Shown one piece after another: positions 22,250-26,251 of a stretch of DNA of 27,513 nt (position 1 is the first letter of the stretch; each line of letters begins with the position of its first letter). This DNA comes from Escherichia coli (GTDB lineage: Bacteria; Pseudomonadota; Gammaproteobacteria; Enterobacterales; Enterobacteriaceae). The notes below the pieces were generated by a model, which was not told the DNA's origin, did no database searches, and saw nothing but the letters and a program-made list of their open reading frames with translations. Both the position numbers and the translations under genes were made by a program. Where the stretch lies: NCBI RefSeq assembly GCF_003334385.1, contig NZ_QOWN01000057.1. The stretch is one strand, 5' to 3'.

Positions 22250-22324
22250 ATGACGTTGTCTCCTTATTTGCAAGAGGTGGCGAAGCGCCGCACTTTTGCC
22301 ATTATTTCTCACCCCAATAATTAA
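22250..22324 (+). pseudogene. prfC: Truncated 5' end of prfC (peptide chain release factor RF3): 22 native codons, then 2 foreign codons and a stop
   Basis: The ATG at 22250 encodes [22 protein letters not shown], identical to the RF3 N-terminus as I recall it. The G1 P-loop motif (HPDAGKTT in K-12) is broken after HP; the frame continues NN-stop and the sequence becomes AT-rich and unrelated. Confidence 0.8.
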
Positions 22325-22544: not shown

Positions 22545-23756
22545 ATGGCGCTGTCTGATGCGTGGTTGCGTTCAGTCGTTGGAAAGGAACGTGATAAGGT
22601 TTTGGTAAAATCCGATCGTGATGGTCTGTCTGTCAGAGTATCACCGAAAGGTCGCGTAGTGTTCCAATACCGTTATCAATGGGCAGGGAAAGGTGAGCGT
22701 CTTGATATCGGAACTTACCCGGCAACTGGATTAAAAGAGGCCAGAGAAGAAGTTATCCGTCTCCGTGGTGAACTCGAGTCAAACCGTAATCCACGATTGG
22801 TCAAGCAGGCTGAAAAACGAAAAGCTACTGAAGCCATGACGGTAGAGTCTGTGATCCGTGCCTGGTATGAAGCATATTGTGTAAAAAATAAAAAGGGTTC
22901 TGAACAGATACTCCGCTCGTTTGAGCTGCACCTGTTCTCTAAAATCGGGAATATCCCTCACGATGCAGCTACATTGCATGATTGGTTAGAAGTCCTGGAG
23001 CCTCTTAGCACTAAGACTCCAGCAATAGCAGACCGATTGCTAATTAACGCAAAGCAGGCCCATGTCTGGGCGTATAAGAGAAAGCTTATTGAAACTCGCC
23101 CGCTGTCGGACATCACGGGTAAAGATATGGATATCCGTAAAGGTCAGAAGAAACGGTTTCTGACACACGATGAAATTAAAATTCTTTATGCTGCGATCGA
23201 TGGTTCTCGAATGGTTCCCAAATACCGGGCCTTCATTAAACTATTGCTGCATTTCGGCTGTCGTAGTTCAGAGCTGATTACTGCCAGGGTGGACGATTTT
23301 GATTTCATTAATAAGGTATGGACTGTACCACCAGAACGACATAAGACAGGGGACATAACAGGCGAACCGCTAAAGCGGCCCATTATTGAACCTGTTGAAG
23401 AGCTTATAAAATATGTTATCTCTATGAACAACGGTTCCGATATGCTTTTTACTAAGGAAGGAAGCAGGGAGCCGGTTGGTCGGACATCATTGCAGTCGCT
23501 GCCTTACAATTTAATGCAGTACGCATGGCGGCGTTTAGGATATCAATTCCCTCATTGGTCTCTTCATGACTTGAGACGTACAGCTCGAACAAATTTTTCT
23601 GATCTTACTGCGCCTCATATCGCAGAAATTATGCTTGGTCATAAGCTGCCAGGGGTATGGCAAGTTTATGATAAGAGCGATTATCTAGAAGAACAGCGTA
23701 AAGCCTACCAGACATGGTGGGAGAGAGTTGAATCGATAGTTACTTGTACTAGCTAA
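22545..23756 (+). CDS. Tyrosine site-specific integrase (P4-like; N-terminal DUF4102-type arm-binding domain plus catalytic domain)
   Basis: 403 aa. N-terminus MALSDAWLRSVVGKERDKVLVKSDRDGLSVRVSPKGRVVFQYRY is typical of the P4-integrase family. The C-terminus carries catalytic-box residues HDLRRTARTN (H-x-x-R), LGHK and the nucleophile Tyr in VYDKSDY. Confidence 0.9.
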   Translation: MALSDAWLRSVVGKERDKVLVKSDRDGLSVRVSPKGRVVFQYRYQWAGKGERLDIGTYPATGLKEAREEVIRLRGELESNRNPRLVKQAEKRKATEAMTVESVIRAWYEAYCVKNKKGSEQILRSFELHLFSKIGNIPHDAATLHDWLEVLEPLSTKTPAIADRLLINAKQAHVWAYKRKLIETRPLSDITGKDMDIRKGQKKRFLTHDEIKILYAAIDGSRMVPKYRAFIKLLLHFGCRSSELITARVDDFDFINKVWTVPPERHKTGDITGEPLKRPIIEPVEELIKYVISMNNGSDMLFTKEGSREPVGRTSLQSLPYNLMQYAWRRLGYQFPHWSLHDLRRTARTNFSDLTAPHIAEIMLGHKLPGVWQVYDKSDYLEEQRKAYQTWWERVESIVTCTS

Positions 23757-24052
23757 GATTCCCGTTGACAGTTTGCGTAGCCAGAGCGCAATCAAATCTG
23801 ACGGTCTGCTTTGAGCTGAAGAGCGGATCTTATGTTCTTTTCACTGTTTCCTCAAAAGCATCTATTACTCACTTCGTTGCTCTTTGTGTCGTTTTGAAGA
23901 AAATGCCACTTAACAAAGAATTGGATTAACTAACTTTTTTAAAGGATGTACTTGCAACTTCAATCACAGAAAAAATTTCCAGTTACCCTAAAATGGTCAG
24001 CTTAAATCATTTTCAAAAAATTATTCAAATGTGTAGGGGAAGTGGGATTTTT

Positions 24053-25840
24053 ATGAGACTTGAAAAACTAATTTTAAAGAATTTTCGTGGCTATCACGGT
24101 GAACATAGTATTGACATTAATTCACTAACTGCAATCGTTGGACGTAATGATGTTGGAAAAACAACTATCCTAGATGCGCTTGGAGTGTTTTTTGACCATA
24201 AATTATGTAAATATGATGCTGCCGATAAATGTGTTGATAGTTTAGATAATGATGACGTAGCAATTGGGTGTGTTTTTTCAGGGGTTGAAATACCTATTGT
24301 CTTAGATGCTTCATCTATAACTAATCTTGAAAAAGAATACTTATTAAATAATGATAAAAAGTTAGAGATATATAAGGTTTTTACTAAAGGTAAGGGAAAT
24401 GGTAGCATTCAAGCGAAATGTATGGCTCCATCAGTAAAAAGTGCAAAGTCTTTACTCGCTAAAAAAAATGAGGAGCTTAAAAGAATTGCTGAATCTATTG
24501 GTGTGGATGATGCAGACAAAAGAAGTAATGTTAGTTTAAGGCAAGAGATTTACAAGAAAATTGGAGATTTGAAACTTCATGAAAGCTTTGTTAAATTAAA
24601 TGCTGAGGAGGGTAAAGTAATTTGTGATAAAATATACGATAAACTCCCTCATTTTGCACTGTTTCGCGCAGATAGACCTAGCACTGATGAAGAATCAGAA
24701 GTACAAGACCCTATGAAGTCAGCTGTACAAACAGCATTGCAAAAAATTGATGTTCAACTTGAGTCCATTAAAGATAATGTAAAAAAACACGCAATTTCCG
24801 TAGCGAATAACACAATTAATCATTTGCATGATATATCTCCTAATCTTGCATCTGGATTAGTTCCAAAGTTTAAGGTGGAACCTAAGTGGGAAAATATTTT
24901 TAAACTGACACTAGAAGATGATAGAGGTATCGCTATAAATAAACGTGGCAGTGGCGTTAGACGTCTTGTCCTGATTAGCTTTTTTAAAGCAGAAGCAGAA
25001 AGATTGCAAAGTGAATTCCCAGATAAAGGTGTTATCTATGCTATCGAAGAACCTGAAACATCTCAACACCCCTCTAATCAGAGACTCCTTATTGAGGCTT
25101 TTCAAGAGTTAGCAAGTTCAGATAAATGCCAAGTATTAATCACCACTCACGTACCAGCACTCGTAGAAAAGATACCGACTGAGTCTTTACGCCATATAAC
25201 CAGAACTCTTGACAATGGTTTAGAAGTAAAAAATGGTGATGATGATGTTCTTAAGAATATAGCAAATGATCTAGGTGTATACCCCGACAGTAGGGCATCT
25301 GTTCTTGTGTGCGTTGAAGGTCCTAATGATATAAACTTTTTAAAAAATATCGGTAAGGTTTATCTTGATTATGGTGTTAAAAATGTTCCAGACATGATGA
25401 ATGATCCGCGTATAGTTTTTATTCCAATGGGGGGGCATACTCTCAAAGATTGGGTTAATAACAATTATTTGAAAGTTCTAAATAAACCAGAGGTTCATAT
25501 TTATGACAGAGATGTTGCAGTTCCTCCCCAGTATGAAAATGAATGTAATTCAGTAAATGCAAGGAAGGATGGCTCTATAGCATTTATGACCCAAAAAAGA
25601 GAAATGGAGAATTATTTACACCCTGATGCCATTCAGGCTGTTTTCGGTATTACTCTAACCATAGACGATATGACAGATGTTCCTTCCGTTGTATCTAAAT
25701 TAACAGCATTCAATGAAAGCAAAGCGAAGAAGAAACTTAATAAGTTCGCTACAGGTAAAATGAGCTATCAAATGCTCACTGCAAGCGATACAGAAAGAGA
25801 GACGTTATCATGGTTTAATGCTATATATGACAGATTATAA
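24053..25840 (+). CDS. OLD-family ATP-dependent endonuclease-like protein (N-terminal ABC/AAA ATPase plus C-terminal Toprim); candidate single-gene anti-phage / abortive-infection factor
   Basis: Walker A VGRNDVGKTT near the N-terminus; Walker B / D-loop VIYAIEEPETSQHPS; H-loop LITTHVP; C-terminal Toprim-like motifs VLVCVEGPND (conserved Glu) and VHIYDRD (DxD). Start placed at MRLEKLILKNFRGY, with GGGGAAG about 10 nt upstream, rather than the track start 23993. About 595 aa, close to the size I recall for P2 Old. The gene is markedly AT-rich. No UvrD-like helicase partner is adjacent. Confidence 0.8.
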   Translation: MRLEKLILKNFRGYHGEHSIDINSLTAIVGRNDVGKTTILDALGVFFDHKLCKYDAADKCVDSLDNDDVAIGCVFSGVEIPIVLDASSITNLEKEYLLNNDKKLEIYKVFTKGKGNGSIQAKCMAPSVKSAKSLLAKKNEELKRIAESIGVDDADKRSNVSLRQEIYKKIGDLKLHESFVKLNAEEGKVICDKIYDKLPHFALFRADRPSTDEESEVQDPMKSAVQTALQKIDVQLESIKDNVKKHAISVANNTINHLHDISPNLASGLVPKFKVEPKWENIFKLTLEDDRGIAINKRGSGVRRLVLISFFKAEAERLQSEFPDKGVIYAIEEPETSQHPSNQRLLIEAFQELASSDKCQVLITTHVPALVEKIPTESLRHITRTLDNGLEVKNGDDDVLKNIANDLGVYPDSRASVLVCVEGPNDINFLKNIGKVYLDYGVKNVPDMMNDPRIVFIPMGGHTLKDWVNNNYLKVLNKPEVHIYDRDVAVPPQYENECNSVNARKDGSIAFMTQKREMENYLHPDAIQAVFGITLTIDDMTDVPSVVSKLTAFNESKAKKKLNKFATGKMSYQMLTASDTERETLSWFNAIYDRL

Positions 25841-25980
25841 CGTTTGATTGTACGCAATTAGGGATCTTTCTTGATATTTAAAAGGCTGCTCCATACATCG
25901 CCTCACAATAGTGGTGTCGTTATTCGGTTACAAATACTACTACTAGGGGGACGGTGAGTGCTAAGGTAACTGTCCTTATT

Positions 25981-26057
25981 GGCACAGAGCGGATTTCAGA
26001 TTAGGTGTGACTCTGTGCCATAGATGGGTATTAGCTCACATTTGATCTAATACCCAT
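25981..26057. terminator. Two stem-loops in the convergent intergenic region between the OLD-like gene and the alpA-like gene
   Basis: ggcacagag-N21-ctctgtgcc (25981-26019) and atgggtattag-N12-ctaatacccat (26024-26057); the second abuts the stop codon of the alpA-like gene. Confidence 0.35.
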
Positions 26058-26251
26058 TACTCAATAACTCCCGCAAACCTGTATATCTTGCGCGATGCCC
26101 ATTTATTTGGGCAGGATTTTATATCAGGATTTGGAAAGTCAGGCCTGTATTTCTGGCCTGTTTTCCTGTTTACGCTGTTCCAGCGAAGAACAGTCGATAC
26201 TGAAACGCCACAGAAGTCGGCGACTTGTTTAGTTGTCATTAAGTTGTTCAT
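26057..26251 (-). CDS. Small HTH DNA-binding protein, AlpA/excisionase-like
   Basis: 64 aa; TTKQVADFCGVSVSTVLRW resembles the AlpA/Xis-type helix-turn-helix. Its start overlaps the stop of the upstream DUF551 gene (TAATG). Confidence 0.55.
   Translation of the reverse strand: MNNLMTTKQVADFCGVSVSTVLRWNSVNRKTGQKYRPDFPNPDIKSCPNKWASRKIYRFAGVIE

Follow-up and report, generated by a model that had tools for sequence, protein, structure and literature searches.

The DNA analysed here, referred to below as the window, is a stretch of 27,513 nucleotides from Escherichia coli (contig NZ_QOWN01000057.1 of assembly GCF_003334385.1). It contains the following features of a prophage and of one gene carried by it.

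22250..22318, + strand: remnant of the 5' end of prfC, translating to a 22-residue peptide and then a stop, annotated as a partial CDS; it marks attL
22545..23756, + strand: prophage tyrosine integrase (phrog_1, 6e-75; RefSeq annotation)
23811..25975, no strand: variable cargo segment of the int-xis slot, delimited by blastn breaks against related prophages
24053..25840, + strand: CDS of 595 aa plus stop, OLD-family ATPase-Toprim protein (RefSeq WP_074160083.1)
26057..26251, − strand: prophage excisionase of 64 aa, HTH, convergent (phrog_1553, 1.9e-35)

The 22-residue peptide is presumably the N-terminus of RF3, and the element is a prophage of the lambdoid type that lies in the 5' end of prfC; a genome 99.8% identical to this one has cI/Cro, Q, holin, lysozyme and terminase genes downstream. 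The first-pass annotation had described a P4-like satellite, which this gene content and insertion site contradict. It had also placed the gene in an integrase-proximal cargo slot between a tyrosine integrase and a convergent AlpA-like neighbour; the integrase and the slot stand, but the 'AlpA-like' gene is the excisionase. Homology with related prophages in blastn comparisons breaks at 23761-23810 and resumes at 25976-26055, and other strains carry a dGTPase defence gene at this position. The cargo segment holds one gene only, leaving about 240 nt on its 5' side and 135 nt on its 3' side. In one sister strain the prophage genes nearby are pseudogenes.

The open frame spans 23993..25840 on the + strand, and an ATG at 24053 gives a protein of 595 aa that ends at a TAA stop (25838-25840). 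This start agrees with RefSeq WP_074160083.1 and with a first methionine that is invariant in 33 homologues of 594-622 aa. The gene is AT-rich, as had been claimed along with its size and motifs, every one of which was found; its GC content is 34.8% (GC3 23.8%) in a window of 49% GC, and at this composition 615 open codons would arise by chance with a probability of about 3e-22. Comparison with an allele of 84% DNA identity gives a dN/dS of 0.085; the gene is therefore genuine, and purifying selection acts on it. RefSeq names the product only 'ATP-binding protein', and a literature search for the accession found no paper citing it. A sigma-70 promoter scan recognised none upstream of the gene (overall it returned fewer sites than in shuffled sequence), and an Rfam scan found neither a retron RNA nor any other RNA near it.

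The N-terminal half of the protein is an ABC ATPase with the following features.

24053..25165, + strand: N-terminal ABC ATPase domain, aa 1-371 (Pfam AAA_15, 3.1e-64; phmmer; Foldseek)
24140..24166, + strand: Walker A / P-loop GRNDVGKTT, aa 30-38; K36 pairs with K34 of the Thermus scotoductus enzyme (Ts OLD) and is invariant
24938..24964, + strand: ABC signature-like motif NKRGSGVRR, with N296-G301 invariant; aligns with segments of GajA and Ts OLD
25034..25075, + strand: Walker B and D-loop, IYAIEEPETSQHPS, aa 328-341, from alignment to Ts OLD
25142..25156, + strand: H-loop TTHVP, aa 364-368; H366 pairs with Ts OLD H310 and is invariant

The proposal of an OLD-type ATPase was thus confirmed by HMM (AAA_15, 3e-64), and phmmer against PDB sequences returned the Thermus OLD structure 6p74 at 2e-11 and GajA at 2e-7. 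The domain is interrupted by an inserted region at about aa 47-320, beta-rich and with a putative coiled-coil of the kind by which OLD proteins dimerise; in the predicted full-length model, long helices lie within the ATPase at aa 220-266 and 300-321, where pLDDT is 60-80. In the phmmer alignment to 6p74, residues K34, E276, H283 and H310 of Ts OLD correspond to K36, E332, H339 and H366. The protein therefore has the OLD-specific departures from canonical ABC sites, with E332 replacing the Walker B Asp, H339 as the D-loop His and H366 as the H-loop His, next to E333 as the catalytic Glu; the Walker B Glu, D-loop His and H-loop His of Ts OLD have been described as OLD-specific, essential residues (PMC7049728). 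All of 34 homologues keep the Walker A, Walker B and H-loop motifs without variation. Faint Pfam matches to DUF2813, the YbjD N-terminal domain, were seen over the P-loop region.

The C-terminal half contains the following features, as placed in the predicted model.

25280..25597, + strand: Toprim core, about aa 410-515, with four strands (aa 417-421, 454-458, 480-484 and 509-512) alternating with helices
25301..25330, + strand: Toprim Glu motif VLVCVEGPND, aa 417-426, with E422 and D426, at the end of strand 1; invariant in 34 sequences
25424..25444, + strand: PxGGxTL loop, the Toprim glycine motif, with G460 and G461, after strand 2; invariant
25496..25513, + strand: DxD motif HIYDRD, aa 482-487, with D485 and D487, at the end of strand 3; invariant
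25595..25621, + strand: KREMENYLH, with E517 and E519, after strand 4; R516, E517, E519, N520 and Y521 invariant
25598..25837, + strand: C-terminal helical domain, about aa 516-595, with invariant K559 and N563

The candidate catalytic residues are all invariant across 34 homologues of 50-87% identity, and in the model E422, D426, D485, D487, E517, E519 and K559 occupy the secondary-structure positions expected of them. By comparison with PMC7049728, E422 and D426, four residues apart, would correspond to Ts OLD E377 and D381. KREMENYLH probably forms the second metal site as the counterpart of Ts OLD S478/E480, and K559 is possibly the counterpart of Bp OLD K562 and Ts OLD R487. The putative metal sites were mapped by motif order and spacing.

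No profile finds the Toprim. The C-terminal 200-225 aa gave no meaningful match in Pfam, PADLOC, PHROGs, NCBIfam or an hmmsearch of PDB sequences. Pfam OLD-like_TOPRIM (PF20469) did not match the query or, at E≤0.001, any of 23 family members, one of which reached 0.037. The hmmsearch of PDB sequences returned no Toprim protein, its top match being C5a peptidase (E 0.08). When the C-terminal profile was compared with P2 Old by hhalign, the Toprim stayed unaligned and the sole match, of 17% probability, was a spurious one to the Walker B region. The identification of this half as a Toprim of the OLD type comes from its predicted fold, in which the C-terminal domain has a pLDDT of 90. Foldseek with the full-length model gave Ts OLD 6p74 as the best match (7e-18), followed by GajA and retron Eco8; with the C-terminal region, the best match was a Class 2 C-terminal region, and AriB was a weaker match than the OLD proteins. 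The original call of an OLD ATPase-Toprim protein is thus upheld by HMM for the ATPase and by fold for the Toprim. The lack of a significant Toprim profile hit had been named in advance as counting against that call, and we judged the structure comparison to override it.

About 75 helical residues follow the Toprim in the model, in place of a compact C-terminus of the Class 1 type; an extra C-terminal helical domain is typical of Class 2 and absent from compact Class 1 proteins (PMC7049728, PMC10568477). The missing compact C-terminus is a descriptive trait and not what defines Class 1.

The gene context is that of a single-gene system, as the first-pass annotation had held: the one-gene cargo segment lacks a helicase, reverse transcriptase or DUF4435 partner. 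No helicase gene (gajB or UvrD/PcrA/Rep-like) lies in the slot or its flanks, and there is no reverse transcriptase ORF beside the gene. In Vibrio cholerae a homologue of 597 aa forms a one-gene integron cassette between VCR repeats. All-against-all clustering of the neighbours at 56 loci found no conserved partner, with no neighbour family common to more than six of them; the exceptions were a BREX subset, a type I R-M subset and one ICE island common to three enterobacterial loci. A split, two-gene version of the protein was considered and rejected, the short proteins with the C-terminal domain being mostly fragments of full-length genes. We consider it probable that the product is a stand-alone enzyme of the OLD family, that its gene context puts it in Class 1, and that the lambdoid prophage carries the gene as a moron.

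Among known systems, P2 Old, a Class 1 OLD that acts as a prophage-encoded abortive tRNase, offers a close parallel. Both are single-gene ABC ATPase-Toprim proteins (586 aa in P2, 595 aa here) carried by temperate E. coli phages as non-essential lysogenic-conversion genes, and their Walker A, signature, Walker B and H-loop motifs can be aligned. Pairwise similarity is confined to these ATPase motifs (E 6e-6), the P2 Toprim is not aligned by the C-terminal profile, and the carriers differ, P2 Old lying at the old-tin end of phage P2 and the present gene in the int-xis slot of a lambdoid phage. Ts OLD (Class 1, PDB 6P74) is the best match both in full-length fold and among PDB sequences, and has in common with our protein the Glu of Walker B, the His of both D-loop and H-loop and, by motif order and spacing, the Toprim acidic pattern E/D(+4)/DxD. 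[quoted passage not shown] The Class 2 proteins (Burkholderia 6NK8, Xanthomonas 6NJV-X and Bacillus GajA) resemble ours in having a Toprim together with a helical domain, but here there is no adjacent GajB/UvrD-like helicase and the Pfam OLD-like_TOPRIM profile is unmatched. Class 3 OLD proteins are retron effectors, and differ in that this locus has neither a reverse transcriptase nor a retron RNA.

Two further single-gene proteins are instructive. Vc OLD of V. cholerae (Class 1) is a DNA nickase whose defence needs its ATPase and DxD residues and has an abortive-infection-like phenotype (PMC12392090); like the present gene it is an OLD encoded singly, next to an integrase, on a mobile defence element. 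It nevertheless belongs to another protein family, the V. cholerae member of the present one being the separate 597-aa cassette protein. Identity of the two was rejected on their key residues, which are K48, D313 and D468/D470 in Vc OLD against K36, E332/E333 and D485/D487 here. YbjD/OldB (chromosomal Class 1, PMC13261556) is likewise an isolated OLD gene in E. coli; by description it is set apart as a core-genome protein of 552 aa with a recognisable Toprim, whereas the gene studied here is rare, foreign and prophage-borne.

Relatives of the gene are scattered among mobile elements. It is present in 14 of 5426 E. coli genomes (0.26%), in a patchy distribution, and relatives occur on 18 IMG/VR viral contigs. 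A tblastn search of 50,697 deposited phage genomes gave no homologue over the full length. An 87%-identical protein lies among TIR/Thoeris-like genes in ICE cargo. At eight of the 56 loci, in several phyla, the family member is operonic in BREX, in the order PglXI-[gene]-BrxHII-PglZ-BrxA with gaps of 0-25 nt, and at three it is beside or inside type I R-M; the other 45, this prophage included, have no BREX or type I R-M neighbour. Some homologues, such as those in Serratia and Methylophaga, lie between ordinary chromosomal genes.

These observations suggest that the 595-aa protein is a new member of the OLD defence nucleases of the single-gene, Class 1 type, for which there are precedents in P2 (PMC12445682, bioRxiv 10.64898/2026.07.10.737580), V. 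cholerae (PMC12392090) and E. coli YbjD (PMC13261556). Most likely it is a lone OLD-type ATPase-nuclease that would kill or arrest the cell on infection by another phage. We propose that the ABC ATPase, oligomerised with its inserted coiled-coil, acts as sensor and switch, and that in the resting state it would hold the C-terminal Toprim nuclease inactive. A cue from the incoming phage, perhaps one of its proteins or DNA of aberrant structure, would alter the state of the ATPase, and the Toprim site would then cut nucleic acid by means of two metal ions, one presumably bound by E422, D485 and D487 and the other by D426, E517 and E519. Cleavage would halt the infection at the expense of the cell (abortive infection), protecting the lysogen population and with it the prophage. 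The substrate may be DNA, nicked or degraded as by Vc OLD, Ts OLD and GajA, or tRNA, as with P2 Old and AriB; the fold neighbours of the predicted model lean slightly towards the DNA-cleaving OLDs. OLD architecture is itself no guarantee of nuclease-based defence, given that the Toprim of YbjD is dispensable (PMC13261556) and that an archaeal OLD has a role in the cell cycle (PMC12796447).

In a rival reading, the protein would act as a one-polypeptide counterpart of PARIS, its ATPase sensing anti-restriction proteins and its Toprim then cleaving host tRNA. This is a claim on mode of action and not on membership of PARIS, and the anti-restriction proteins meant are Ocr-like DNA mimics, which put BREX and type I R-M out of action. 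PARIS (AriA/AriB, or merged AriAB, Class 4) also pairs an AAA_15-type ABC ATPase with a Toprim-fold effector, is found on prophages and satellites, and is triggered by an inhibitor of the very systems with which some relatives of our gene associate, namely BREX at eight loci and type I R-M at three. TOPRIM-linked OLD ABC ATPases have been put forward as backup effectors of BREX in a 2026 survey (PMC12839542), tRNA is the target of both P2 Old and AriB (PMC12445682, PMC11464382), and merged AriAB proteins exist. Against this, 45 of the 56 loci have neither neighbour, and defence genes cluster for other reasons too. Pfam detected no DUF4435 (PF14491) in the query or in any of 23 homologues, and in PADLOC the C-terminus had no AriB or AriAB match, the AriAB model covering the ATPase only. 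Solved AriA chains were absent from the phmmer matches (E≤1) and from the top 50 Foldseek matches. On balance we regard a PARIS-like mode of action as unlikely.

The BREX operons hint at a role as a guard. It is a doubtful proposition, to which we give a small chance, that the family of proteins of about 600 aa is jointly a distinct, unrecognised class of OLD and an anti-anti-restriction guard. On this reading, one polypeptide would join the gene context of Class 1 to an effector resembling that of Class 2, Toprim plus helical domain, to which present profiles are blind. The protein would fire once a phage disables DNA-modification-based immunity; type 3 BREX and type I R-M operons would have taken it up several times over, and it would travel alone on prophages, ICEs and integron cassettes. 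The repeated placement of family members between pglX and brxHII/pglZ gives a concrete hypothesis on what is sensed.

A role outside defence, in the DNA metabolism of the element or of the host, appears quite improbable. The protein might, for instance, take part in recombination or repair, serve to maintain the prophage or as an addiction factor, or do housekeeping work as archaeal Cran1 does. Such a role would suit the homologues found between ordinary chromosomal genes, and neither Ts OLD nor Cran1 has a known defence role (PMC7049728, PMC12796447); it fits poorly with a gene whose composition is foreign and AT-rich, whose distribution among E. coli genomes is sparse and patchy, and which, with its relatives, is found in an exchangeable slot of a prophage, in ICE cargo, in an integron cassette and in operons of BREX or R-M.

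True membership of PARIS, as a merged AriAB or Class 4 OLD, is very improbable indeed. The best PADLOC match is named AriA (7.5e-57) and merged AriAB clades have been described, but that model (PDLC02979, 373 positions) matches as Pfam AAA_15 (374 positions) does, and we take it to be generic to AAA_15 and reject its label as evidence of PARIS. The defining DUF4435 is missing, and the protein is shorter than merged AriAB, by about 100 aa relative to the 694-position AriAB profile, which it matches in the ATPase part only. The suggestion of a compact fused PARIS-like variant is accordingly abandoned, DUF4435 being found in none of the 23 members, AriB being the weaker fold match and AriA not being among the matches.

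That the gene is a decaying or inactive remnant is scarcely credible: a stop at codon 9 in the ICE-borne allele of strain UK_Dog_Liverpool, perhaps repeated in 11 other E. coli genomes, and the pseudogenes near it in the sister strain would agree with decay, but the copy in the window is full length, keeps all family-invariant residues and shows the low dN/dS given above. The 11 other genomes have a BLAST score equal to that of the UK_Dog_Liverpool allele.

The main reading, of a probable stand-alone OLD defence nuclease, bears on a major defence superfamily of which no branch is less well understood than the single-gene OLD nucleases. Tests among these have been confined to P2 Old, Vc OLD and YbjD, which differ in trigger, in substrate and even in their need for the nuclease. 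The present family is compact, autonomous, naturally a one-gene cassette and native to E. coli, and is therefore easy to test. It is a widespread, essentially unannotated branch of a known defence family. Its nuclease half is invisible to profile libraries and its annotation reads 'ATP-binding protein', so that defence censuses may miss it; the remedy would be a profile made by aligning the C-terminal domains. The C-terminal domain of the family is contained in about 1,000 clusters at 50% identity.

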